DNA from: a virus
IMG/VR virus record: IMGVR_UViG_3300027839_000006
Coordinates: 1-64,000 of that record
Reading direction: 5' to 3' (one strand)
DNA length: 64,000 nucleotides
The notes beneath the pieces were generated by a model, which was given only the letters and a program-made list of their open reading frames with translations, did no database searches and was not told where the DNA came from. Below, piece after piece: positions 1 through 32,887 of this stretch. The position numbers and the translations under genes are program-made. Numbering within the stretch: the stretch's first letter is position 1; every line of letters begins with the position of its first letter.

Positions 1-3000
1 CGTTTACATGAGAGGGTATTTCCCTGTTCGTGGGTTGTTTCGAGATATCGGAAACGAAGCTGACATCATAGGTGCTGATGGGTCTCTGACTACTGAAGAT
101 GGTCAGATTATGATCGATGACACGTATAGCAAGCTGACCGATGAAGAGATAGCAGCCGCAGCCGCAGCCGCAGCCGCAGCCGCTACGGCTGCCCCACCAG
201 TCCCAACGGACCACACCTATACGCTCGATGATCGGTATGCGTCTGGGGAAGACATTTCGGACCACCGAAAACTCTCAACACGGGATTCAGCAACCCCGGT
301 GCCGGTAGAAGGCGATGCCGCTGCACGGGCCACTACCGCTTACGAACACAACACAACAAATGCCGACAAGTCTCAAGCGGTAGCCGAGGCGATGGTGCTG
401 GCGATGCAGGTCTCTGCCCCAGAAGCAGGTGTTACGCATCACGACAACCCAAGGACCAACATTCTCAACGCCCATGAAGGGGGGCACAGCATACACACGG
501 CGACGGGCGAGCATCCCGAGGGCACGGCCCATGATTGGAAGTTCTATTCCGGTAGCACCTTCTTGGGATCGCCTTCCGATCCAGGGCGGGACAATAGGCC
601 AGAAGATGTGGCGAGTGCCGGGGATCGGTTCAACTACACGTCCTATGCAACGGCAATCGTTATGCAGGAGCAGGGGCTCATCCCTCCTGGCGGCAACGGT
701 TGGTACAACTCATTTAGTGAACCGGGTGCGGAGGGTTCATCGGAGATTCCACATTACGATTTCAGGGAGGGTTGGGATACCAATCCCGGGAACTTCATTG
801 CGGGTTGGTATATTTCTAAAGGGGAGTCCGGCGGGCGTGGGATCACGTTCACTGGAAATCCAGATGACGCACCGGGCGGCACGTTCAGATTCCGTAGTAT
901 GTACCCCGACGAGTTGATTGCAGAGGTCGAGCGGGTACGACTGTTAGCCGCAGCCGGGAAGTTCAACGGCGTTCCATCAGCATTTTCTATCTACCAAGCT
1001 CGTTTGGATGGTGACGACAGCATTTCTTGGGACGATAGCGCCCGACATCAAGCGATATCCTCATCGGCGGCACAGGCGACCTCCGAAGGGTCTGTTATTG
1101 ACAACGCCATTATTGACGAGTCTGTAAAGGGGCTTCACACCAAGGACGCATACGACGATCTCTTTTCTTACCCCTACTATCATGTCTTCCACGGGGTCGT
1201 GACCCAGGTTGACTTTCAGTTTTCGGGTGGGTTTCAGACGGCCAGCTTGAACTGTGCTTCGATGCTTCATTTCTGGGAGTACCAGAACATGAGTACGAAC
1301 GCTTCTTTCTTCGGCGCTCGCCCTACCAACTCCAAGCTCAACTACAGCCTACTGGGGCATAACTTCACGGGGATGCACCCGTATCAGATCATCTACACGT
1401 TGTTCCACGATACGGCGGGCGCTGCGGGCGGTGTTACCCATGCCATTAGGCAGCAGACCAACGTAGACGCAAAGATCGACGGGCAGGAGTCTTTGTTCTC
1501 GTTGAACATCAAGTATTGGGAGCAGCGTTTCCAACAGAGGATGATCGGCCTTCGGATGCACGGGGTATCTGGGGCGATGTATAACACTGTTCAAGCAGCG
1601 TTCCTTGGACGGCTTTCTACGGCGAATGCCAACAACTTGTTCAAGTCTCGATACCCAGGAATCGAGGGGTCAGCCCAAGCCAGGAGTCAAGTATCCAGCA
1701 TCTTCGATCAAGCAGTTGCTTTGGGTTTGGTCCAAGGAGACCGGAGGACAGCCCAGATCGCTCGAACGAAATGCGGTCTTGATGCAGGGGGTACGCACTC
1801 GGCGATGGGTGAGGCTAACTGGGGGCAGGCCGGACCACAAGACGCGGATTCCGATGGCAATCTCGAAAAAGATGACGTTGAACTCAATATGTTTGAGATG
1901 CAGGCGTTCGTCAAAGACCTTGGGCAGCTTGGGCAGATCAATATGTTCGAGTCGGCTTATGAGTCCAAGCTCGATATTATCAACAAGGTCTGTGAGGTCA
2001 CGGGCTTTGAGTTCTTCCAAGATGTAGATGGAGATTTCGTCTTCAAGCCTCCAATGTATAACCTCGACACATCTTCCAGCCGCATCTATCGGGTCGAGGA
2101 TATCGACCTCATTAGTTGTAACTGGTCAGAGAAGGAACCCGACTGCACATACATGACGGTCAAGGGCTCTCATTTCGCCAACATCGCAGGTACGGGGTTG
2201 GATAATGAGTGGGGTGTTCAAGGGACGTTCATTGATTACAAGCTCGTAGCGCAGTTTGGATGGCGTCCCGGGTCGTTCGAGACCGCTTACTTCAATGATC
2301 CAAGACAGATGTTCTTCGCAGCCGTCAACCGCACGGACATTCTGAATGTCGGTGTAAACTCTGGCAGTGTGACGATTCCTTTACGTCCAGAGCTTCGTCC
2401 CGGTTATCCGATCTACATCGCCCACTTGGACGCCTTTTACTACTGCAACTCGTTCGCTCATGCCTACCAAGCCGGGGGTCAATGTACTACGGCTCTTCAG
2501 TTGATCGGTAAGCGGGCAAAGTTTTTCGCTCCCGGTCGTACTGACATGGAGGGTATCGATGCGATTAGATTAGAGGACATGCTTCGCCCCCCGAAGCCTT
2601 TGTCGGTTTATGAGCAGATAGACGGGGAGTATATTCATCGAATCAAGGGGTATCCGAATGTTGTGATGGCACTCGACCCCACTGCTCTCAACCCAATGTT
2701 CTTCATCACTGGGGTTGATGGGGAAGCCTTGTCTCAACCTGACACTCTTCGTTCTTTGTTGAGGGCTGCCTCCAAAATGAATCAGGTAGTTACGGAGTGT
2801 ACCTCGCCCGCTGATAAGGCGAAGGGAGAGTTCAAGTATACGACGGGCGAGGGGACCAACATCACGACTACTTATATCACCATTGATCCAGAAGGTTCCG
2901 CCCGTGGTGAGGTTCGTTCAGACGGCCAGCTTGGTGGCTACACCACGGGAAGTGTCGGTGGAACCGTCGAGCTTTCTAATGTTGCGGCAGAGCGTGAAGA

Positions 3001-6000
3001 GATTTTGAGCACATCAGCCCCGGCTGCTGCTTCTTCTGCTGCATCAATCCGAGATCTTTCAGCCCAAATGGCGGCGAATAAGACAAGCCAAGCCAAACTC
3101 AAGAAGACTATGAAGTCTACCCCGATGGGGATAGCCCCAGCCCCGGTGCGTGGTAAGCCCACGCAGGGGACGCTCAACGACCACGCTAACTTTGCGACTC
3201 GGAGCGGCTTGGAACAGGATCTCGCCGAACTCTCTGCCGATTGGATAAAGCTGGATGCTGAACATACAGCATTACAGTCCCAGTATGCAGCTTCTCAAGA
3301 GGCTCATATCACCTCCAAGTTGACAGGTGCGACTGCAACGGCTGAACAACAGATGCTATCGGATATCATCAAGCTGGCAAGCCAGCACTTCAGTAGAGGG
3401 GAAGCTGCACGTTCCGGTTGGAACGATCTGGATAGCTCTTCCAACCTGTTGGATTTGATCAGCAACAAGAAGGCTATCTTCACGAATGGGGAACTCCCTG
3501 GACAGTATCGGTATTACTCATCAGCGGCCCCCACGGCTGATGATCAAGGTGACGCTTGGGATCTTATCCCCCCAGTAGGGACCGCCGCCCCCTTGGCAGA
3601 CCGAAGTCTAACTGGAGCAGGGGGGAATCTCAATCAAGCTACGAATACCCAATGGCTAACAGGTGCAAGGATCACGACGCCTTCACGGGAGCTAATGCCC
3701 CCCGAAGCAGCATTGGGCAGTGGAACCATCTTCAAGGGCTTGTATGTCGAAAGACATCCTGGCACTCGGGAGGTGATGGCAACCGAAGACATCCATCAGC
3801 TAATGTTCTCGATCCATAAGGTCAAAAAGAAGTTCCGTGTCGAGAGACAAGGGGTCAGGGTCAATCAATCAGCAAATATCACTTTTCAGCAGCTTGTAAA
3901 CGCCATTACGCAGATGTGGGCCCACACTTCGGCTGGGGGCCAGCGTGCTGACGATTGGGGGACCAGTGGATATTGGCCCGCCACAATCCCCGATGCTGAT
4001 TGGCGGGGCGGCAAGCCAGAAGGATCGACAGCGATGGCTAAGGGGGCCGCCGGGAACAAGGGAAGGATAAGTTGTGCATATGCACAAGTTCGACATCTGA
4101 TTTTTGGAGACACAGGCGGCACCTCGACAACTAACCCTGCCTACCGTTATCAACTCGAAGATGCCGGGGTGAATGGAACGGGAAGTATCTGGCTTCGGCC
4201 CATGTGTTTGTGGCACACACTCAACGAACTCATCCTGGATCACGACGACTCCGCCATGTTCGACCGGGCATCGGAGAAGCCGGACAAATGGACGTTCCAA
4301 GGGTCAAAGTCATCGCCGGATAGGGCATGGGACAGCGGTGCTGGGATGCAGGTTCCAAAACTCTGTATGTATAGGGGCAGTTCCAGTAACGACCAGATGA
4401 CCGCTTGGGCATACGTCTCCAAGCCAGCCTATTCGCTTGTACAGTCCTGGTCGATGGGCCAACCCGGGCTGATCACCTCCTGGGGCGCTAACAACTGCGG
4501 ACTTCCCACATGGGGCTTACGGGGCGGAGCAACCTTTCTCGATGATAACGCCTGCCCTGTGGCTATTCCTGTCAACATGACCATGAAGCAAGTTTTTTGC
4601 TGGCATTGGGACTTTGGTTTTGAGAACGGTCAGACTGGAAAAGCTGCGTTGCAATCCAAGCATTACACAGGCAGCAACGCCCCCTTCCGCAAGATAGCTT
4701 TCGAGCCAAAATACCCCGACAGGTGTTGTCAAATCCATCAACCCGGTTGGTATATTCATGGCGCATCACACTTCCCAGCGAATAGCGTAAGAGTCGGCAA
4801 TCTCAACAACGAGGATATAATGAACCTCTCTGCTCGATTTCAAGGCACCGAGGGTTACGCTTATTCGCTGTTCGGTACCGAGACAGATAGCGAGATGTGG
4901 CCGAACGTCGCTTGGGGTCAGATAGCGGGGGACAAAACATGGGGCATGACATTGGGCCTCATCATGTCAAGGGGGCTTGCGGTCGCCCCGTACAATAGAC
5001 AAGAGGTCTTTGAGGCTTTCCAGAGGGGTGCCATTCAGCAGTATGCGGCGGGGGTTTACAACATCTGGAAGAAAGCCAAGAGGTCGGGTTCGAGGGTCTT
5101 TTCTGGTGTCAACAGGATCATGTCAGATGTTTTTGATATTTCCGTCAACTCGACGGTGCGCCAAGACTATGTGACGGATTCTTGGAAGACTGTTGAGACG
5201 CAAGCTCCAGTGTTTCCTGTCAGCGATGCCAAAGGCTACACGGTGGTTGGAAACTATCGTTATGGCCGTGGATTGGACATCCTCGCTGACAACCCCATGC
5301 AAAACATGCAAAAGGTCGATCCTACAAGTGCTATCGACAAGAAGTACGTTGACGACTTTGTGCAGTCTTTGGTGTCAGGCACCCACAACCCTGACGAACA
5401 AGCGGTGATTGCCGATTCGAGTCGTGTGGTGACAGACCAGATTGCTAACTACTCATCGATGAGCGGCCAGGAGCAGTCGATCTACAACTTGGAAGTAGCT
5501 CTGGCTAACAACTTCTCCGCACAGGAGATCATTGATTATGGGCTTGGTCAATGGGATACCGAGGCTGACCATTTCGACCTCAACTTCCAGAACTGGTTGG
5601 CTAATAAGCAGTTTGAGGGCACCCAAAAGCTCGTCGTAGAGAACGCCGCCTATTCGTTAGCAGACCTTGGTTCTATTGTTGACGATCTGCCACCAGCCAG
5701 CGCCCATCGAGGTGCCGAGTCGTCTGTGGCGATGCGTGCCTTCAGCACAGACTTCGCCAACGTGCTTGCCCAGCAGGACATGGGCATGGCGGAGGCTTTC
5801 TCCGAGCTTGACTTCGGCTCTGACGGTAAGCCTTTGTTGGATGCCCCTTCAGTTGGACAAGTTCTCGAACAGGGGAGCAAGACCCCTCTGTGGCAAGATT
5901 ACCAAGCAGCGATTCGTGGCTACGTGAGTGAGAACTTATCTGGAGACAATGGTCCCTTCAGTGATGCCTGGGGTGACTTCCAAGACACTATCAATAAATC

Positions 6001-6106
6001 CGTTGCCGGTACGCAGGCCGCAGGTGCCGCTTTTGACCAAGCCGTTGATAATGAGAAAGCGGCGTCTGAAGCTGTAAAGACCTTTGACTGGGACACCGAG
6101 GATTAG
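1..6106 (+). CDS. Giant baseplate hub protein (T4 gp27 / P2 gpD / Mu gp44-like fold) with inserted domains; probably 5'-truncated (>=2032 aa)
   Basis: The frame is open back to the window edge (gtt tac atg = V-Y-M), so ATG at 8 may be internal. Hub-type segments: VFHGVVTQVDFQFSGG...LNC, ESKLDIINKVCEVTGFEFFQDVDGDFVFKPP, SGSVTIPLRPELRPGYPIYI...YYCNSFAH...TTALQL. It lies directly upstream of the spike gene, as in Mu gp44-gp45. Confidence 0.75.
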   Translation, partial: VYMRGYFPVRGLFRDIGNEADIIGADGSLTTEDGQIMIDDTYSKLTDEEIAAAAAAAAAAATAAPPVPTDHTYTLDDRYASGEDISDHRKLSTRDSATPVPVEGDAAARATTAYEHNTTNADKSQAVAEAMVLAMQVSAPEAGVTHHDNPRTNILNAHEGGHSIHTATGEHPEGTAHDWKFYSGSTFLGSPSDPGRDNRPEDVASAGDRFNYTSYATAIVMQEQGLIPPGGNGWYNSFSEPGAEGSSEIPHYDFREGWDTNPGNFIAGWYISKGESGGRGITFTGNPDDAPGGTFRFRSMYPDELIAEVERVRLLAAAGKFNGVPSAFSIYQARLDGDDSISWDDSARHQAISSSAAQATSEGSVIDNAIIDESVKGLHTKDAYDDLFSYPYYHVFHGVVTQVDFQFSGGFQTASLNCASMLHFWEYQNMSTNASFFGARPTNSKLNYSLLGHNFTGMHPYQIIYTLFHDTAGAAGGVTHAIRQQTNVDAKIDGQESLFSLNIKYWEQRFQQRMIGLRMHGVSGAMYNTVQAAFLGRLSTANANNLFKSRYPGIEGSAQARSQVSSIFDQAVALGLVQGDRRTAQIARTKCGLDAGGTHSAMGEANWGQAGPQDADSDGNLEKDDVELNMFEMQAFVKDLGQLGQINMFESAYESKLDIINKVCEVTGFEFFQDVDGDFVFKPPMYNLDTSSSRIYRVEDIDLISCNWSEKEPDCTYMTVKGSHFANIAGTGLDNEWGVQGTFIDYKLVAQFGWRPGSFETAYFNDPRQMFFAAVNRTDILNVGVNSGSVTIPLRPELRPGYPIYIAHLDAFYYCNSFAHAYQAGGQCTTALQLIGKRAKFFAPGRTDMEGIDAIRLEDMLRPPKPLSVYEQIDGEYIHRIKGYPNVVMALDPTALNPMFFITGVDGEALSQPDTLRSLLRAASKMNQVVTECTSPADKAKGEFKYTTGEGTNITTTYITIDPEGSARGEVRSDGQLGGYTTGSVGGTVELSNVAAEREEILSTSAPAAASSAASIRDLSAQMAANKTSQAKLKKTMKSTPMGIAPAPVRGKPTQGTLNDHANFATRSGLEQDLAELSADWIKLDAEHTALQSQYAASQEAHITSKLTGATATAEQQMLSDIIKLASQHFSRGEAARSGWNDLDSSSNLLDLISNKKAIFTNGELPGQYRYYSSAAPTADDQGDAWDLIPPVGTAAPLADRSLTGAGGNLNQATNTQWLTGARITTPSRELMPPEAALGSGTIFKGLYVERHPGTREVMATEDIHQLMFSIHKVKKKFRVERQGVRVNQSANITFQQLVNAITQMWAHTSAGGQRADDWGTSGYWPATIPDADWRGGKPEGSTAMAKGAAGNKGRISCAYAQVRHLIFGDTGGTSTTNPAYRYQLEDAGVNGTGSIWLRPMCLWHTLNELILDHDDSAMFDRASEKPDKWTFQGSKSSPDRAWDSGAGMQVPKLCMYRGSSSNDQMTAWAYVSKPAYSLVQSWSMGQPGLITSWGANNCGLPTWGLRGGATFLDDNACPVAIPVNMTMKQVFCWHWDFGFENGQTGKAALQSKHYTGSNAPFRKIAFEPKYPDRCCQIHQPGWYIHGASHFPANSVRVGNLNNEDIMNLSARFQGTEGYAYSLFGTETDSEMWPNVAWGQIAGDKTWGMTLGLIMSRGLAVAPYNRQEVFEAFQRGAIQQYAAGVYNIWKKAKRSGSRVFSGVNRIMSDVFDISVNSTVRQDYVTDSWKTVETQAPVFPVSDAKGYTVVGNYRYGRGLDILADNPMQNMQKVDPTSAIDKKYVDDFVQSLVSGTHNPDEQAVIADSSRVVTDQIANYSSMSGQEQSIYNLEVALANNFSAQEIIDYGLGQWDTEADHFDLNFQNWLANKQFEGTQKLVVENAAYSLADLGSIVDDLPPASAHRGAESSVAMRAFSTDFANVLAQQDMGMAEAFSELDFGSDGKPLLDAPSVGQVLEQGSKTPLWQDYQAAIRGYVSENLSGDNGPFSDAWGDFQDTINKSVAGTQAAGAAFDQAVDNEKAASEAVKTFDWDTED
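152..181 (+). repeat. (GCAGCC)x5 in-frame microsatellite encoding poly-Ala
   Basis: Five exact GCAGCC units give EEIAAAAAAAAAAATAAPP in the hub protein. Confidence 0.95.
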
Positions 6107-6107
6107 C

Positions 6108-8546
6108 ATGTTTGCAACATCACCATTTTCTGGATTTTCTACTTTTACTTCTTACCAGGGGCATCACCAGCTTCAACAAGCAAAGGCCCGTAAGAAGCTC
6201 CAAGAGGCACAACCGAGTCGAAACCCCCATTTGGGGGTGGGTCAAGTTGTCAACGTCAACTACGAAGAGTTTTTCGTTACGCTTCGTATTGTCATTGGGG
6301 ACGACTTTCAGAATCAACGTGTTCCTGTTCCAATCACTTTTCCTGGGGCTGGGGCACGACATTTCTTTGGATCAATGCCAGAGGTTGGAGACAACTGCGT
6401 GGTTGGTTGGATGCCCCAAGAGAGCGGGGGTGCCGGACCGAGAGATAATGAAGGAACCAAAACACCAGTAATCCTGGCTTGGATTCCACCCGGGGCTTGG
6501 CTTGGACACGACTGGGTTATTACCTCTCCCTTCACCGCCGACGAAGAAAGGATGGGACCACGGGGAGCGGCGATGGTCGAGGGGCAGTTCGCCCGTACTC
6601 GACACAAGAGGATGCACCTACGACCTGGGGATATTGGAGCAAGCTCTTCCAAAGGGTCAGACATCCTGTTGAATGAAGGGGTTTACATTACGAACCGTAA
6701 GGCGAATGAGCTACGGTTGAGAGACCAAGACCAAGCCTTTGTTGTTCGGTCACAGCAACAGTTTCATGTCATGTCAGGGGCACGGGTCTATGCGGGCATG
6801 ATCCAACGAGATGCCCACCTTCTTCAATCTGCCGTGTTCCATTCGAGGGGCTGGGCCACCGACCAGACAATGATGGGTAAAGACCAGAGCGGTGGGGGTG
6901 AACCTTGGATGGCAGGTTCGGCAATAGGTGCTCCCGATGCCGCCATTGATTTCTTGCGTATGCCTCGACCGCCTAATGTACGGTTTGAACCGATTTTGGC
7001 GTCCATAAAGGGGAAGACTGGGACTGACCCCGACAAAAAAGCCGTTTATGGGGGCAAGCCCATCTTTCGGGTCGCCTATAACGAACAAGGGTACACCAAT
7101 AATGCAGAGCTAACAGGTGCCAAGGCGTTCTCCGAGTATCGTATTGAAGTAGACCACACGACGGATGGGATACTTCCGGTTTCAGAACAGACAGAAGGGG
7201 TTGATCTTGACCGAATGTCGGGTAACCGTGGGCAGGCTTTCATTGAGTTTGCATTAGGGACCGTGGTCGGGAACAACGCCTTCAATGCAGACCGTGCTTT
7301 GTACGGGGTTCCGTTGAGGCCAGTGGTGTTTGACGGGCCGACTGCTACTCCTTCGATTTCTTCGGCTGCTGGCTTTGAACTCGGTGAACAAGCGGCCACG
7401 TTGTTTCGGGTACACCCAGTAGCTCCCGGGGATAAGTCACAGCACTCTGGAAGTTCATGGACATCTTTCACGAAGGACGGTCGATTCAAGGCCAGGATTG
7501 GGGGTCCAGAGGGAACCAACAGTGTCGAAGTGTCTGTTGCCGGGACGACTCGATTTGATACCGCAGGCTTGAATCTTTCAGTTGTGGGGCCTCTCGATTT
7601 ATCTTCTGGACCTGGGACAGATGGCGAGAACGTAGGGCTTCGACTCGGGTCGGCGGCAGGCGCAGTTGTCATTGAGTCTGGCGGGAAAATCGAAGGCGTT
7701 AGGGCAGTCAAAGCACTCCAAGAACCAGAAAGCGATAGCCCGATGGCAGCCGGTGCCCCAAAGGCCATCCCGAGTATGCTTCTCAAGGGCCAAGAGCTTC
7801 ACATGGAGTCAGAAGAGGGGGTTCTTATCGGGGCAGGCGGTTCCGCTACCATCACTGCGAAGTCTGGGATCTCTCTGAACTCACCCGGTCAGCAGATCAA
7901 CCTCAACGCAGGGGATGGGACCATTATCCTCCGTGCAAATGAGGTCCAACACGTTGCGATGGGGCGGGAGACCCAAAAATACTCGGGAGCTAATGGAGAT
8001 CGGATCACCGAGCTTCCTATGCGTCATACGAGCTTCACCGCAGGAGGCCCCATCTCCAATGGCGTCTGTTTCTATGAGGTTGTCGATGAAGTGGAGTACG
8101 CCAATGGCGGCAAACGGACCTCCTACGACTATGGGGACCGAGAATCGGTCTACAACATTGGGGCCGAGAAGACGATCTGCAAGACTGGCAAGGTCACTTG
8201 GGACGCTAACACGACCAGCAAGGATATTCCTGGGCTCAACCAAGTGACTTTTGGGGCCACTATTGGATTCATGGCCGAGATGCAGGTCGGTTCTGTGAAG
8301 ATGACTTCAACGGTAGGTTCCGCCAAGGTCGGGAGTAAGACAAAGACGACCATCGCTGCCTTGGGGCAGTGTGCCGTTGAGGGCAATACGATTGCTATGT
8401 CAGCCCCCGGAAGCCCTCTTGATAGTGGCGGGGTCATCTGTTCCGGCCACATCCACCCCATTATTGGGCAGCCCTTGGGTAGTATTATGTGTGGAAAAAT
8501 GGGTTCGATGACCATCACTATTAGGGTTGGAGCGTCAGCAGGATGA
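6108..8546 (+). CDS. Baseplate central spike (gp5/gpV/VgrG-like OB-fold plus beta-helix), about 812 aa
   Basis: ATG at 6108 follows GAGGA and the hub stop; the track's 6084 start overlaps the hub. OB-fold motif GQVVNVNYEE...VPITFPGAG...FFGSMPEVGDNCVVGW, a C-terminal run of short Gly/Ser/Thr-rich beta repeats, and an HxH motif (GHIHP) near the C-terminus. Confidence 0.8.
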   Translation: MFATSPFSGFSTFTSYQGHHQLQQAKARKKLQEAQPSRNPHLGVGQVVNVNYEEFFVTLRIVIGDDFQNQRVPVPITFPGAGARHFFGSMPEVGDNCVVGWMPQESGGAGPRDNEGTKTPVILAWIPPGAWLGHDWVITSPFTADEERMGPRGAAMVEGQFARTRHKRMHLRPGDIGASSSKGSDILLNEGVYITNRKANELRLRDQDQAFVVRSQQQFHVMSGARVYAGMIQRDAHLLQSAVFHSRGWATDQTMMGKDQSGGGEPWMAGSAIGAPDAAIDFLRMPRPPNVRFEPILASIKGKTGTDPDKKAVYGGKPIFRVAYNEQGYTNNAELTGAKAFSEYRIEVDHTTDGILPVSEQTEGVDLDRMSGNRGQAFIEFALGTVVGNNAFNADRALYGVPLRPVVFDGPTATPSISSAAGFELGEQAATLFRVHPVAPGDKSQHSGSSWTSFTKDGRFKARIGGPEGTNSVEVSVAGTTRFDTAGLNLSVVGPLDLSSGPGTDGENVGLRLGSAAGAVVIESGGKIEGVRAVKALQEPESDSPMAAGAPKAIPSMLLKGQELHMESEEGVLIGAGGSATITAKSGISLNSPGQQINLNAGDGTIILRANEVQHVAMGRETQKYSGANGDRITELPMRHTSFTAGGPISNGVCFYEVVDEVEYANGGKRTSYDYGDRESVYNIGAEKTICKTGKVTWDANTTSKDIPGLNQVTFGATIGFMAEMQVGSVKMTSTVGSAKVGSKTKTTIAALGQCAVEGNTIAMSAPGSPLDSGGVICSGHIHPIIGQPLGSIMCGKMGSMTITIRVGASAG

Positions 8547-9133
8547 GTGTTTCAACGATAGGGCTACCTCTCGCTTGTGCTGGCACTGGCACTGCTTACT
8601 CTTGGACTGGATCAGCAGGCGTTTCTTTCACCAGCGCCTTTGGGCGAGCGGTGAACTGGTGGCTTGGTCAGGGTACTTCTGTTCGACTTACCGGCGCTGT
8701 CATTGGGCTGATGGGAACCGGACAGGTGACGGGGAAGCTCATCATCTCCCCCGCCACCGGAGCCTATATGAGCTTCTTGTCTGCCTTTTCGATCACGGGG
8801 ATTCAAGCTCAAACGCTGGCAAGCATCTGCTCGCTCGGAGTTGTTGCAGGAGCCTCGACGACAGGTCTCTACAAAGGAGACTCCATCGGGGTCGCAACTG
8901 GTGTGGACTTGGGTAAGGTGACACTGGCAGATCCAACCACGTTGGCGGGGAGGATCATTGTGGAGTGGGGCAGCGGGCAGATCTATGGAGTGTGTATGAC
9001 GAGTCTTGCGAGCGCCCTGGCTTCTGGTGCAAGCGTCCAGACGTTGACGGGTATCGGTATAGGGGCCGTCACCCCGAAAGGTCCGGTTGCCCCCTGGCCT
9101 GGGGGCGGGGCTTCAACTTCAACTGTGCTTTAG
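8543..9133 (+). CDS. Gly/Ala/Thr-rich hypothetical virion protein, 196 aa; possible spike-associated tip protein
   Basis: ATGA overlap with the spike stop, GGAG upstream, and three loosely similar internal segments. Confidence 0.7.
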   Translation: MSVSTIGLPLACAGTGTAYSWTGSAGVSFTSAFGRAVNWWLGQGTSVRLTGAVIGLMGTGQVTGKLIISPATGAYMSFLSAFSITGIQAQTLASICSLGVVAGASTTGLYKGDSIGVATGVDLGKVTLADPTTLAGRIIVEWGSGQIYGVCMTSLASALASGASVQTLTGIGIGAVTPKGPVAPWPGGGASTSTVL

Positions 9134-28223: not shown

Positions 28224-28240
28224 GAGCTTTGGACCACCAT
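28217..28240 (+). promoter_or_regulatory. Inverted repeat overlapping the RBS and start codon of the gp25-like gene
   Basis: ATGGTGG (28217-28223) is the exact reverse complement of CCACCAT (28234-28240); 10-nt loop GAGCTTTGGA. Confidence 0.5.
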
Positions 28241-29378
28241 GAGTATCGATGTCAGACTTACATATTCTTGCCCCCACATCACCGTGGAAGAGGTGGTAGA
28301 GGTGTTAGACAGACAGGTGTTGAAGACGAGACAACCTGTTGCTTCTACCAAGCTGGTTAGGGTGTTGGTCAATGATGTGTTTGAGATCCCCTCCGAGGGG
28401 TCATATTCCCAGGCTCAGTTGATCAGTAGAGTTGGCCCTTACTTCATCGTAAAGAACGAGCAGGAGTTTGTAGTCACCGGGTCATCCGAGACCGTGACTT
28501 TGGCTCTTACCTCTACCGAGGACACCGGCAGGTCACTAACGACTAATGAGTTGGTTGCTCTTCTTCGGCCACTTACGACGACCCTGCACTTTGAGAATAA
28601 AGGCGGGGCACTCTTGATTCGGGATACCTCGAACATTGGGCCAAGGTCTTCCTTGCGTCTTTCTGGGTCCGCAGCCGAGAACCTCTTTCCTCATCAGACA
28701 GGAGACCGGGGAAAACAACTCTGGCCTGGGTGGGACATTTGGACGCCCCCTGGAATGATTACCTCCAAGTACGTTCGGTTCCGTTCCCCCATTCGGTCTA
28801 ATCCAAGGATTACTGTGACCTACCCCGTCCGTCGCACCCGTTGTCTTCGATGTCGGGGTGGAGAGGTCGAGAACGATCCTCGCTTCACGGAAGCAGGCCA
28901 GATGATCTTGGTTGAGAATGAGAACCTATTGAATCAGTTGGTGTTGAAATCCTTGCTGACAGATAAGGGTTCTAACCCCTATTTCAAGGGGTATGGGACG
29001 CTCCTTCGGAGTAGAATCGGCAAGAAGGCCACAACAGGGATCGCCGCTTCGATATCTCAAGATGTGACGAGATGCCTTGAGAAAGTGAAACAGTGGCAGG
29101 GAACCCAGTCAGGGTATCAGTACGTTAGCCGTAAAGAGCGGCTTTCAGAGATCGTGTCCGTAGACACGTCCCCACACAAAGACGACCCCTCGACTTTCAT
29201 GGTGGACGTTGTTGTCCGTAATGCTTCTCGGTCACCAATCCGCATTTCAGTGATTTACACGGTTCCTGGGGTGGTGGCACGGTTGATTAGGGACGGTATT
29301 CCGTTGGCACAAGTAGGAGATACCGGGGGCACGTTGGTAGCTCTCGCAGACCTCAACCCAAGACGGGGAGCCTTCTAA
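28239..29378 (+). CDS. Baseplate wedge / sheath initiator protein (T4 gp25 / P2 gpW-like C-terminal domain) with N-terminal extension, 379 aa
   Basis: C-terminal ENENLLNQLVLKSLLTDKGSNPYFKGYGTLLRSRIG...ERLSEIVSVD fits the GPW/gp25 pattern. Immediately upstream of the gpJ-like gene. CPH and CLRC motifs in the extension. Confidence 0.8.
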   Translation: MSIDVRLTYSCPHITVEEVVEVLDRQVLKTRQPVASTKLVRVLVNDVFEIPSEGSYSQAQLISRVGPYFIVKNEQEFVVTGSSETVTLALTSTEDTGRSLTTNELVALLRPLTTTLHFENKGGALLIRDTSNIGPRSSLRLSGSAAENLFPHQTGDRGKQLWPGWDIWTPPGMITSKYVRFRSPIRSNPRITVTYPVRRTRCLRCRGGEVENDPRFTEAGQMILVENENLLNQLVLKSLLTDKGSNPYFKGYGTLLRSRIGKKATTGIAASISQDVTRCLEKVKQWQGTQSGYQYVSRKERLSEIVSVDTSPHKDDPSTFMVDVVVRNASRSPIRISVIYTVPGVVARLIRDGIPLAQVGDTGGTLVALADLNPRRGAF

Positions 29379-32300
29379 TGTCTGAAGTAACCTTTCTTTG
29401 CCCCGATGGGGCCTCTCGATCTGACTTCGTGTTCACGACAGACGTGGAGTACCGCTTCTTCATTGGGACATGCCCCGCAGACACCGCCTATATGCAGATT
29501 TCTGTGTTTGGTGGTCCGATGTTGGATGATCCAGACCTTATCACTTTCGAGGGGGATAGCTTCATTATCCCCAACCCCACCAAGTATCCAAATGGGATGC
29601 GGTTGCTGCCTGGGCAAAACCTAATCGAAGTACGGGCAATAAGAACTTCGGGGGGCATCACACCCACATCCTCTATCCAAGCCACGTTATCTCAAGACGA
29701 TGCTCTTCTTCTTTATGCTGCCCCAACTGGGTTGAGGATGGATCGAGAAAATGGGTTTGTCCGCTTCGTCATAGAGTACACGCAGGGTGATTCTTTTCAA
29801 GGGTTCAACGTCTACGCAAGCCCCGACCCTGGTGGGACAACGGGCTACATCAAGTTGAACCCGACCTTGATCACGGACCTGTATACGACAGAGGAAGTCG
29901 TTACTCCTTTGGGTGAGTTGCAGGCAGATACGGCGATTGTCCTCGATGAAAACGGGAAGCCGCTGGCAGATCCCCTATATTTCCGAGTGACTGGAGAGCA
30001 AGAGGGTCGGTCAGGGAACGCCCTTCAGATGGACATCAATGAACGTATAGCTGTTTCAGAGACATCCCGGCATCTTCGTACAACTCTCTTGTTAGAGTCA
30101 GTAGCGAAGAAAACCTACTATGCCTTTGAGCATCAAAGGGATGCCGTTTACACAACCCCAGGTCGCTCCACGATTCCAAACTCGATTCTGGCGGGAACCC
30201 CAGTAACAGACGATCTCTATTACGTTGCTGCGGCGGTGTACTACGACTCAACCACTTTGAGGGAGTATTCGTCTCCTTTTTCTGTTGAGGTGACGGGCAA
30301 GCCTCTTGTAGTGACCCCGCAGATAGGTACATTCCCCGCTACGTCTCGGCGTCGGATTCTCAATGAACTGACCCAATCGATTCATCGCAGTAATCCTCAT
30401 GTAGCGGTTCAACCGGGGTCCGTGCTGCGAGACGTGTTCATTGATCCAATGTCGTCAGAATCACAGAGACTCCGGTTCATCCTGGAGTTTCTACACGCAG
30501 CACAATCTTTTTCAACACTGCTTGTCATTGATGATCCGACAGGGAGTGGGGTGTCTGTTGACACGAAACTCTCCCCTTACAAGCAGGCAATCGGGCAAGC
30601 CTTCTATTTGAGCAACACCCTTGATGTGCAAGCTCTCATTGATATGTGTTTCAGCAAGCTCGCCCACAACCTTGGGATTTCACGGAGGTTGGGGACCAGG
30701 GCACGGGGAGAGGTAACTTTCTATACCCCTACTCGACCGACACAGACCATCACAATACCGCTTGGGACAGTTGTTACAGGTGGGGGTAGGGAGTTCAAGA
30801 CAACCTCTGCGGCACGGATTCCAGCCACCTTGTCAGCGCAATACTATGATTCTGGGACAGGCACGTACCGAGTTCGAGCTTACGTTCGAGACGCTGGGGT
30901 CGGAGCCTCTGGAAATCTGTCAGCAGGACAGATGTCTTCTTTCAGTTCTTCTGGGCTATCAAGTGTTTCAGTAATGAACGAGTCCGCTACCTTTGGGGGC
31001 CTTGATAGAGAAGGCAACACGGCTTTAGCCATTAGAGCTATGGGGGCGATTGCCAGTGTCGATAGCGGTACGCTTCGGGGGTACGAACAAACTGTGGCTT
31101 CGATGGCAGGGGTGATTGAGTCGAAAGTTGTGGTGGCAGGCGATTCTTTGATGAAGCGTGACTACGACTACACCTTGGGACAGAACCGGGGTGGGAAGGT
31201 TGATATCTATGTTCGAGGTTTACAACTTTCCACAGTCACGGACACTTTCGCCTTTTCGTTCGAGACAGCCTATGACGTAGTGTTTGAGCCTGTGGGAGAC
31301 CCTCAAGATCTTATCTTTCAGTCCCAAGATGAAACACTTTCCGAGGACAACCCCATCATTGAGATGTTGAACTTCCCAGATAGGACACCCCCGCTGGGTA
31401 TTCTGAACGCCTCGACCGGAGGCCGATTCGTGCTTGATGGTCTGGAGATTCTTTCTTACGACACGATTCAGATTTCCAGCGAGTTCAATGACCCCGCAGA
31501 CATTGATGTGACTGATGTCATCACGGGAGATTACCGCTATCGGACCAGTCTTCAGTTTACCCCCACCCGACAGCCCGTTAGCTCGGTTGTTTTGATGGAA
31601 GGTTCTGATGGAACGATTTTATCGTCCCAGGACTATGTTCTCTATCGACTTGATGATCCCCTGGTCATGGGAAGATCCTCTACGGCAGCAAACTATGTTC
31701 AAGTGGATAGTGCCACCAGCATTGGAACGGTTCTTCAAGTTGACGGTGAAGAGCACCTTATCCTTGGGGCCAACATTGAGTATCTCTTCATGCTCGGGGC
31801 CAACAAGCTGACCATTGTGATCAAGGATAGCGAAGGCACAGTCTTCAATGGACCCGAGGAAAATAACCCCGATTACCGGATCATTTCTCCCGAAGATTCC
31901 CAGACAACTTTTGGTATTCAGAGGACTGAAGACACCGAGATCATTTCTGGGCAGGAGGTCTTCATTGATTACTCCCATGATGAGAACTTTACGATCCAAT
32001 ACATGACGAACTCCTTGATTGGGACGACCCAAAACTCCCTGGAAGCAGACCGCCACTTGACCGCAGATATTGTAGTCAAGGAGGCCACGAAGACGGCTGT
32101 TGATATTTCTGCCACGATTGTGCTGGCCTCGGGAGCAAATGTTGAGACAGTTGAGAATGAGATCCGCAACAAGCTGGTCAATCTTTTCAACAGCCTTCAA
32201 CTCGGGGTTGCCCTACGTCATTCAGATGTATTGGAGCAGCTTGATTCGACCTCTGGCGTTTCTTATGTCGTGGTGCCGTTGACCCGACTGGCCCGACAAG

Positions 32301-32887
32301 AGGGTTCATTGGTGATTCGGGAGAGGTTAGACACCTCTGAATCGGAAGATACTTTGTTCATCAAGAGTTGGTCTTCTGATTTGGTCCACACGTACTTGGT
32401 TACAGGGCCTCTTTCTTCGGCCACTCTGAATGGGGGCGGTGAGGGAAATGAATATCGAGCCATTCAACAGGATGGCTTGGATTTGGTGTTGGAAACCATC
32501 ATCCCGAATGAAGCAGGACAGCCTCTTCAGAAGAAGGTTGGCAAGTGCTTCATCATCGGGAACGGTGGCGTTATGATTCCTGGCTACAACGATGATGACA
32601 CTGTGGCAGCAACCTATCCAAAGATGGATCAAAACGAGCGTTACGAACAGTCAATGTCCATGACCCAAAATCGGGTTTTGGTCACGGTAGCTGCTTCAGA
32701 TTCCCCTACGAACCACAACTATGAGGTGACTTACTATGTGGGTGAAGATCTGGGTGTCGGGAACATTGAGCCAGAAGCGATTGAGTATCTGACAGCCGGG
32801 AACTTCGACTTCATCTTCGATGAGGACACTCCGAGAGTTACTTCTCGGAGTACATATAGTCGCACCACGTCCACGGGAACCTACTGA
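29378..32887 (+). CDS. Baseplate J-like wedge protein (P2 gpJ / Mu gp47 / T4 gp6 family), extended, 1169 aa
   Basis: PGSVLRDVFIDP, LAHNLGISRRLGTRARGEVTF, TIPLGTVV, GASGN, NESATFGGLDRE, GTLRGY, GGKVDIYV, and C-terminal LGVALRHSDVLEQL...GVSYV. N-terminal Ig/FN3-like extension. Confidence 0.9.
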   Translation: MSEVTFLCPDGASRSDFVFTTDVEYRFFIGTCPADTAYMQISVFGGPMLDDPDLITFEGDSFIIPNPTKYPNGMRLLPGQNLIEVRAIRTSGGITPTSSIQATLSQDDALLLYAAPTGLRMDRENGFVRFVIEYTQGDSFQGFNVYASPDPGGTTGYIKLNPTLITDLYTTEEVVTPLGELQADTAIVLDENGKPLADPLYFRVTGEQEGRSGNALQMDINERIAVSETSRHLRTTLLLESVAKKTYYAFEHQRDAVYTTPGRSTIPNSILAGTPVTDDLYYVAAAVYYDSTTLREYSSPFSVEVTGKPLVVTPQIGTFPATSRRRILNELTQSIHRSNPHVAVQPGSVLRDVFIDPMSSESQRLRFILEFLHAAQSFSTLLVIDDPTGSGVSVDTKLSPYKQAIGQAFYLSNTLDVQALIDMCFSKLAHNLGISRRLGTRARGEVTFYTPTRPTQTITIPLGTVVTGGGREFKTTSAARIPATLSAQYYDSGTGTYRVRAYVRDAGVGASGNLSAGQMSSFSSSGLSSVSVMNESATFGGLDREGNTALAIRAMGAIASVDSGTLRGYEQTVASMAGVIESKVVVAGDSLMKRDYDYTLGQNRGGKVDIYVRGLQLSTVTDTFAFSFETAYDVVFEPVGDPQDLIFQSQDETLSEDNPIIEMLNFPDRTPPLGILNASTGGRFVLDGLEILSYDTIQISSEFNDPADIDVTDVITGDYRYRTSLQFTPTRQPVSSVVLMEGSDGTILSSQDYVLYRLDDPLVMGRSSTAANYVQVDSATSIGTVLQVDGEEHLILGANIEYLFMLGANKLTIVIKDSEGTVFNGPEENNPDYRIISPEDSQTTFGIQRTEDTEIISGQEVFIDYSHDENFTIQYMTNSLIGTTQNSLEADRHLTADIVVKEATKTAVDISATIVLASGANVETVENEIRNKLVNLFNSLQLGVALRHSDVLEQLDSTSGVSYVVVPLTRLARQEGSLVIRERLDTSESEDTLFIKSWSSDLVHTYLVTGPLSSATLNGGGEGNEYRAIQQDGLDLVLETIIPNEAGQPLQKKVGKCFIIGNGGVMIPGYNDDDTVAATYPKMDQNERYEQSMSMTQNRVLVTVAASDSPTNHNYEVTYYVGEDLGVGNIEPEAIEYLTAGNFDFIFDEDTPRVTSRSTYSRTTSTGTY

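Follow-up and report, generated by a model that had tools for sequence, protein, structure and literature searches.

In phage T4, the tail lysozyme gp5 is a virion-borne wall hydrolase located at the tail tip and used in penetration. A different arrangement has been described for Bacillus phage 0305phi8-36, in which gp147 is a "hyperplastic" homologue of the T4 gp27 hub with exchangeable peptidoglycan-degrading domains, and in which relatives of the phage differ in these domains (Hardies et al. 2007, PMC2147016). The zinc peptidases of the LAS group are defined by a metal-binding motif of the type H-x(3-6)-D...H (PMC4087270), and the group includes the C-terminal domain of VldE from S. pneumoniae (9flh), an L,D-endopeptidase (PMC11667670). 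Here we describe a module encoded by a giant tail gene at the start of a 64,000-nucleotide (nt) stretch of viral DNA (IMG/VR record IMGVR_UViG_3300027839_000006, positions 1 to 64,000; in the following, the window). The module, 277 amino acids (aa) in length, is best explained as a highly diverged LAS-type zinc peptidase domain, nearest to MEROPS M15A and to Peptidase_M15_3 (PF08291), with His101, Asp108 and His181 (module numbering) as putative ligands. It would be tethered in a loop that belongs to the hub-like tail-tip protein of a large phage with a contractile tail, where it most likely serves as a virion-associated peptidoglycan hydrolase. Based on the sequence comparisons reported below, we assign this reading a probability of roughly 0.75.

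The locus shares features with both phages. Like gp147, which is compared here by its published description, which belongs to a large myovirus, the carrier is a hub-like protein of a large phage with exchangeable wall-degrading domains. Unlike in gp147, where the gp27-like part has transglycosylase, NlpC/P60 and M23 domains attached at its N- and C-termini, a single M15-like module is found here inside a loop of the N-terminal domain. As with T4 gp5, a putative wall hydrolase would be positioned at the tail tip; gp5, however, is a glycosidase carried on the spike, whereas the present case concerns a metallopeptidase-like domain on a hub-like protein. A wall-hydrolase-type domain within a continuous tail-gene reading frame of 2137 codons is the arrangement expected of virion-associated hydrolases on tail-tip proteins.

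An earlier interpretation, made from the letters of the DNA alone (the sequence-only reading), had pointed out the M15-like motifs, and all of them were found to lie in one frame, that of an open reading frame (ORF) at 2..6106 on the plus strand whose 5' end is cut by the window start. Comparison with a near-identical protein (P0003) and with a 99%-identical metagenome contig (L113) places approximately 101 residues upstream of the window. Residues 1-111 of the full protein (P0003, L113) show 50% identity to residues 1-109 of a homologue in LR745208, a 485-kb uncultured phage. In this homologue the distance from GYFPVKG to YPYYPVFHG is 22 aa, as compared to about 375 aa between the same strands in the window protein. 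As the flanks align and only the loop differs to this extent, the term "inserted" is justified: the 277-aa module and its low-complexity linkers are an insertion in a loop of the N-terminal domain. The loop measures 14-40 aa in L114 (the LR745208 homologue), L117, L128, L135 and L137, and 237-331 aa in others. The proposal that the segment represents a domain inserted into a hub-like protein, upstream of its core, is thereby borne out. On the upstream side the motifs are adjoined by the poly-Ala/Pro linker EEIAAAAAAAAAAATAAPPVP. A perfect hexanucleotide repeat, (GCAGCC)x5 at 152-181, encodes part of this poly-Ala linker; it borders the module on the upstream side and is prone to slippage. The guanine-plus-cytosine content of the insert (0.58-0.61 versus about 0.52-0.55) is only slightly raised and is therefore uninformative.

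The limits of the module were set by the boundaries of its match to P0004, a JGI protein of 1140 aa that was the sole close relative found for the module among 5.8 billion protein clusters (near and shorter length classes). From the near length class, a word-indexed protein search yielded P0003 and P0004 only, and from the shorter proteins nothing. P0004 and the window protein share precisely the module stretch, at 59% identity, and have nothing else in common. The presence of the module in two otherwise dissimilar proteins indicates that it is mobile between unrelated carriers. P0004 itself is a non-hub protein, and its flanks match nothing. An M23-like appearance of its N-terminus, noted by eye near aa 175-215 (DHGSITVIYGNL...), received no support from Pfam and was discarded.

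The individual motifs were confirmed at the claimed places. EHPEGTAHDW, with the His codon CAT at 512-514 and the Asp codon GAT at 533-535, matches H-x2-G-x-A-x-D; the stretch GLIPPGGNGWYNSF contains GGNGWY at 689-706; and the third-ligand motif reads PHYDFR, with the His codon CAT at 752-754. The spacing His101-x6-Asp108 together with His181 agrees with the definition of the LAS zinc motif. In an alignment of six modules, the others being 18-30% identical to that of the window, the invariant positions are H101, G104, A106, D108, A146, P158, G160, G161, G163, Y165, N166, H181 and D183. The motifs are thus beyond chance, as they are invariant across modules of such low overall identity, and the His/Asp/His residues that had been claimed as ligands are among the invariant residues of the family. 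In an independent MAFFT alignment the proposed triad occupies the ligand columns of PF08291. More canonical versions of the motifs are found in several of the related inserts, for example SSYR...SNHGTGAATD...GGHGMY...HYDYRG in L118 and SPHHSGTAID...GGIGWY...HHDWRG in L116.

Compared to PF08291/M15A proteins such as E. coli MepK (YcbK), the Streptomyces albus Zn DD-peptidase (1lbu) and Hedgehog's N-terminal domain, the module displays the same succession of elements: the H-x6-D...H triad in (S)xHxxGxAxD, then a helix, then the strand with GGxGxY and finally that with HxD. Beyond the SGYR position, a P-x-x-N stretch also aligns. It is unlike PF08291 in that it stays under every threshold of the hidden Markov models (HMMs), in having Gly in place of the Ser and HHDNPR in place of SGYR, and in its longer spacing, with about 25 residues added from the Asp strand to the helix and about 10 ahead of the third His. 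It also has extensions of about 75 aa at the N-terminal and 90 aa at the C-terminal side, and it resides within a 2137-aa structural protein.

The relationship to M15 peptidases becomes apparent when the module is considered as a member of a family. The IMG/VR collection holds 31 loci with the conserved core, and five distinct inserts align with the window module: L116, L118 (with identical copies), L122, L125 and L129. The window module matches the L116 insert in BLASTP (E 8.8e-12), and a profile of the window module, P0004 and L116 matches one of L129, L122, L118 and L125 (hhalign probability 96%, P 2.3e-9). A reference alignment of Peptidase_M15_3 was built from 30 diverse PF08291 domains taken from genomes; searches with MepK returned only near-identical enterobacterial sequences. 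Against this alignment the seven-module profile obtained an hhalign score of 42 (P 7.3e-6, probability 84%, 120 columns), whereas column shuffles of the profile (n=200) scored 10.6 +/- 2.0 with a maximum of 18.8. The five IMG/VR inserts, without the window module and P0004, still scored 40.6. Control profiles of NlpC/P60 and Phage_GPD gave P 0.09-0.12, and the non-M15-like inserts gave P about 0.5 against M15_3. These profile comparisons support homology of the insert family to Peptidase_M15_3/LAS, and the M15/LAS relation suggested by the sequence-only reading is upheld at the level of the family.

Conversely, a number of observations made with this protein alone weigh against its identification as an M15 peptidase. 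The proposed HMM search against PF08291 came out negative: no Pfam family was matched up to E 10, whether the query was the entire protein, the module or its core, and the gathering threshold of PF08291 was not reached. NCBIfam and PHROGs gave no match for the module even at E 10, and sequence searches of the PDB gave nothing relevant for it. With the M15_3 HMM, hmmsearch was weak (E 0.056 for the P0004 module and E 2.1 for the window module, among 261 sequences). Comparison of the window module plus P0004 with the M15_3 profile was marginal (hhalign score 20, P 0.02, a score equalled by 2 of 300 column shuffles), as was a test with block position-specific scoring matrices (p about 0.01-0.04). 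The window module also departs from the family in its residues: the Ser of SxH is Gly, SGYR itself is unconserved and an H-x-H motif is absent. The Ser is kept in P0004, L116, L118 and L129, and the sampled PF08291 domains lack H-x-H as well. In structure prediction, AlphaFold with the natural two-sequence alignment reached a predicted local distance difference test (pLDDT) of only 32, which is no usable model. A second model, calculated from an alignment of the seven natural modules and 24 PF08291 domains, is a consistency check and not an independent proof because M15_3 sequences had been used to seed its alignment. The model matches LAS structures weakly (Z 3.9-4.4), and Foldseek found nothing with it.

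The caveat that the SxH serine and the SGYR arginine are not evident was correct for the serine. As for the arginine, Arg81 of the sequence NPR was aligned with the family position by hhalign and in one MAFFT run and was left unaligned in a second; in the seeded MAFFT alignment of modules and PF08291 domains the SGYR Arg falls on an Asp. A HMMER query with a 267-aa segment against 1.84 billion representatives gave 0 matches, its own cluster and that of P0004 included, and the representatives of those clusters may lack the stretch or exclude it. Scans of IMG/VR with the module or with single inserts recovered only the inserts themselves, GenBank phages contained relatives of neither P0004 nor the L129 insert, and neither Pfam (E up to 1) nor PHROGs matched the M15-like related inserts. 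Still, the two-sequence hhalign alignment sets Pro-x-x-Asn, HxxGxAxD, GGxGxY and HxD on the corresponding M15_3 family motifs. Language-model features of the core provide a lead in the same direction: 9 of 30 named matches were clusters bearing PF08291 (best 0.90) and one was Hedgehog.

In the seeded alignment MAFFT alone placed H101, A106, D108, G163 and H181 in invariant columns. The resulting model has a mean pLDDT of 61.6 and a predicted template modelling score (pTM) of 0.66, with values of 70-90 for the core helices and strands. In a wide structural search covering 48,161 chains, LAS proteins took ranks 1, 3, 4 and 5 (VldE 9flh, the Zn DD-peptidase 1lbu, Hedgehog 2ibg and 6rmg). The best match, VldE, gave Z 4.4 and a root-mean-square deviation of 3.0 over 80 residues, which is weak and, given the seeding, not independent; unlike in the structural comparison, the module has no detectable sequence similarity to VldE.

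The strongest support for the sequence-only reading, which had suggested that hub homologues be checked for different domains at this site, comes from the relatives of the carrier. The same loop holds an Amidase_2 domain in the L131 group (E 1.7e-17) and an SLT domain in L124 (25.7 bits, cut-off 21.3). The insert of L127/L134 matches NlpC/P60 (hhalign score 31.5, P 1e-4, shuffles 12.6 +/- 2.5), with the catalytic Cys and His aligned. In a maximum-likelihood tree of the core, the insert-bearing proteins all fall in one supported clade of 21 rows and every outgroup is devoid of an insert. Within this clade, proteins with no insert and carriers of SLT, M15-like (three kinds), NlpC/P60-like, Amidase_2 and unknown inserts are intermingled. 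The window protein and L116 are sisters (support 98/97) with cores that are 64% identical over the tree alignment and 60% by tblastn. Their modules show about 33% identity over the 135 aa aligned by BLAST, as compared to 59% between the window module and that of the non-hub protein P0004. That sister cores are alike yet their modules far apart suggests either module exchange or fast divergence.

Two further homologues extend this picture. L121 carries a 291-aa insert in the same loop (L121:1352-2224) that matches nothing in Pfam, PHROGs or PDB sequences, nor M15_3, NlpC/P60 or SleB; it may be an unrecognised wall-active domain. Its assignment as SleB-like was rejected, as the hhalign score of 12.9 equals the shuffle level. 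The LR745208 homologue (L114:5686-10743), which is without loop insert, contains a Glucosaminidase domain (PF01832) at aa 1013-1135 (33 bits), indicating that a wall hydrolase can occupy a second site in this protein family. The C-terminal half of the same homologue gives matches to PHROGs labelled "endolysin".

The positions of the features discussed here are compiled in Table 1. Downstream of the hub-like gene, the gp25-like sheath initiator and Baseplate_J imply a contractile tail. Upstream, as seen in the metagenome contig, a tape-measure-like protein of 1231 aa (L113:3243-6938) is followed by two smaller genes and then by the hub-like gene, an order that is syntenic with LR745208. The 1231-aa protein is rich in Ala, Gly, Lys and Met and features a strongly hydrophobic segment, LGPIGIALIGIVAIVGVIAAVI; the protein at the same position in LR745208 is homologous (E 1e-36). 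The carrier gene thus takes the place expected of a hub gene, with the tape-measure-like gene on one side and the gp25-like and J-like baseplate genes on the other, and the order is comparable in Tunturiibacter phage Tunturi_5. In that phage gp254 (883 aa, annotated "tail protein with lysin activity") is a distant homologue of the core (23.5% identity, E 3e-14) and, in a position like that of the carrier, is found three genes after the tape measure. Short distant homologues of the carrier match the PHROGs "tail protein" and "tail protein with lysin activity". The two genes following the carrier, encoding 820 aa (6084-8546) and 196 aa (8543-9133), are the putative spike and tip; neither has a match in Pfam or PHROGs, and the 820-aa product is also without a match among PDB sequences, with no hydrolase recognised in it. 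The carrier itself is matched by no hub family of Pfam (Phage_GPD and relatives), and an N-terminal profile of 14 hub homologues compared with the Phage_GPD alignment gave a non-significant hhalign P of 0.066. For these reasons "hub" is a positional designation, which rests on gene order and on the PHROG labels of distant homologues.

Table 1. Features of the window around the inserted module, with positions in the 64,000-nt stretch
Feature	Positions	Strand	Basis or remarks
Giant hub-like tail protein	2..6106	+	Full-length form is P0003, 2137 aa; window M1 (nt 8) is residue 102
Last part of the conserved segment at the hub N-terminus, VYMRGYFPVRGL	2..37	+	Strand directly before the insertion
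N-side linker, 58 aa, acidic then poly-Ala/Pro	38..211	+	Sequence
M15/LAS-like putative zinc peptidase module, 277 aa	212..1042	+	P0004, 59% identity; remoter hub inserts L116, L118, L122, L125, L129
Arg81 (NPR)	452..454	+	Aligned with the SGYR Arg (family) and the SSYR Arg (L118) in hhalign and one MAFFT run; unaligned in the second MAFFT run
GEHPEGTAHD, counterpart of SxHxxGxAxD	506..535	+	Putative ligands 1 and 2: His101 (512-514), Asp108 (533-535)
PPGGNGWYN, counterpart of the Peptidase_M15_3 GGxGxY strand	683..709	+	P158, G160, G161, G163, Y165, N166 invariant in the family
HYDFR, counterpart of PF08291 FvHxD	752..766	+	His181 (752-754) putative ligand 3; Asp183 (758-760) invariant
C-side Ser/Ala-rich linker, 42 aa	1043..1168	+	3-aa indel between window and P0003
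Conserved hub core restarting at YPYYHVFHG	1169..2728	+	38-60% identity to 25 IMG/VR homologues; six others 26-36%; LR745208 44%
gp25-like sheath initiator	28239-29378		Downstream of the hub-like gene
Baseplate_J	29378-32887		Downstream of the hub-like gene

Three other explanations were considered. The module may have a LAS fold and yet not be a working hydrolase; in the manner of degenerate LytM factors, it would then bind the wall or have a regulatory role, fastening the tail tip to peptidoglycan. The exchange of Ser for Gly and of SGYR for DNPR, and two loops far longer than those of PF08291, would fit such a role, and catalytically inactive LAS domains do exist (PMC8416486). However, modules with only 18-30% identity to that of the window keep all three ligands and the Asp that follows the third His without exception, and relatives use this site for domains of catalytic families (Amidase_2, SLT, NlpC/P60-like). 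Degenerate LytM-type domains typically lose their ligands, which likewise weighs against a non-hydrolytic role, and we regard it as unlikely. In a zinc peptidase, replacement of the SxH serine by Gly and the modified SGYR segment leave room for a changed specificity or a reduced activity. Far less credible still is that the likeness to M15 is coincidental, i.e. that an unrelated fold such as a receptor-binding or decoration domain displays H..G.A.D, GG.G.Y and H.D by chance. The silence of every HMM library would be in line with a coincidence, as would the fact that the sole structural support derives from a seeded alignment. It is countered by the family profile, which scores about 15 standard deviations above shuffles against M15_3 with control families unmatched. 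It is also countered by motifs that occur in family order on the expected predicted secondary-structure elements, the unseeded model included, and by language-model matches that indicate the same family.

The alternative to be taken most seriously, albeit the less probable view, concerns the carrier and not the module. If the carrier were another tail-tip protein (Tal-like or central-fibre) instead of a gp27/gpD-type hub, the lysin reading would stand and the earlier statement that the activity is carried on the hub rather than on the spike would be wrong. The missing Pfam hub match, the P of 0.066 against Phage_GPD and PHROG labels of distant homologues that go no further than "tail protein" or "tail protein with lysin activity" are compatible with this view. 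The gene order speaks against it: a tape-measure-like gene, two genes, the gene in question, the 820-aa gene and later the gp25-like and J-like genes correspond to a baseplate module of the Mu/P2 type, modules which share this order.

Taking the module as a LAS-type peptidase on a hub-like protein, a possible course of action can be outlined. The module would hang from the carrier on two flexible low-complexity linkers, with three copies per tail if the carrier is trimeric like known hubs. On contact of the tail tip with the wall, the peptidase on its tether would cleave peptide stems or cross-links and thereby let the tube through. Cleavage of the peptidoglycan peptides would proceed via zinc bound by the His/Asp/His residues, with Asp183 as the candidate catalytic residue. 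What the comparisons above demonstrate is the insertion, the kinship of the insert family with M15_3, the unchanging triad and the exchange of wall hydrolases at one site; zinc binding, catalysis, the bond cleaved, the number of three copies per tail and the timing of action are what we infer from them.

That hubs can carry exchangeable wall-degrading domains has been known since 2007 (PMC2147016), and as the general principle is already published the value of the present results is incremental. New are the diverged M15-like subfamily that current libraries miss, its placement in an N-terminal loop, and the evidence for the loop as a swap site for several classes of hydrolases. In a broader interpretation, for and against which the odds appear evenly balanced, the GYFPV-YPYY loop would be a dedicated enzyme socket in a clade of large uncultured phages. 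At least four hydrolase classes (M15-like, Amidase_2, SLT, NlpC/P60-like) would have been swapped there between low-complexity linkers, faster than the carrier diverges and in exchange with unrelated proteins; the inserts of the M15-like type would represent a new subfamily invisible to current HMM libraries, and the insert type could predict the wall chemistry of the host. The library-invisible branch of M15/LAS could become an HMM for the annotation of huge phages. A single loop of a conserved tail protein serving as exchange site provides a compact natural example of modular evolution in the penetration machinery of phages, and where a phage is uncultured, the kind of hub-borne hydrolase may give an indication of how the host wall is built.

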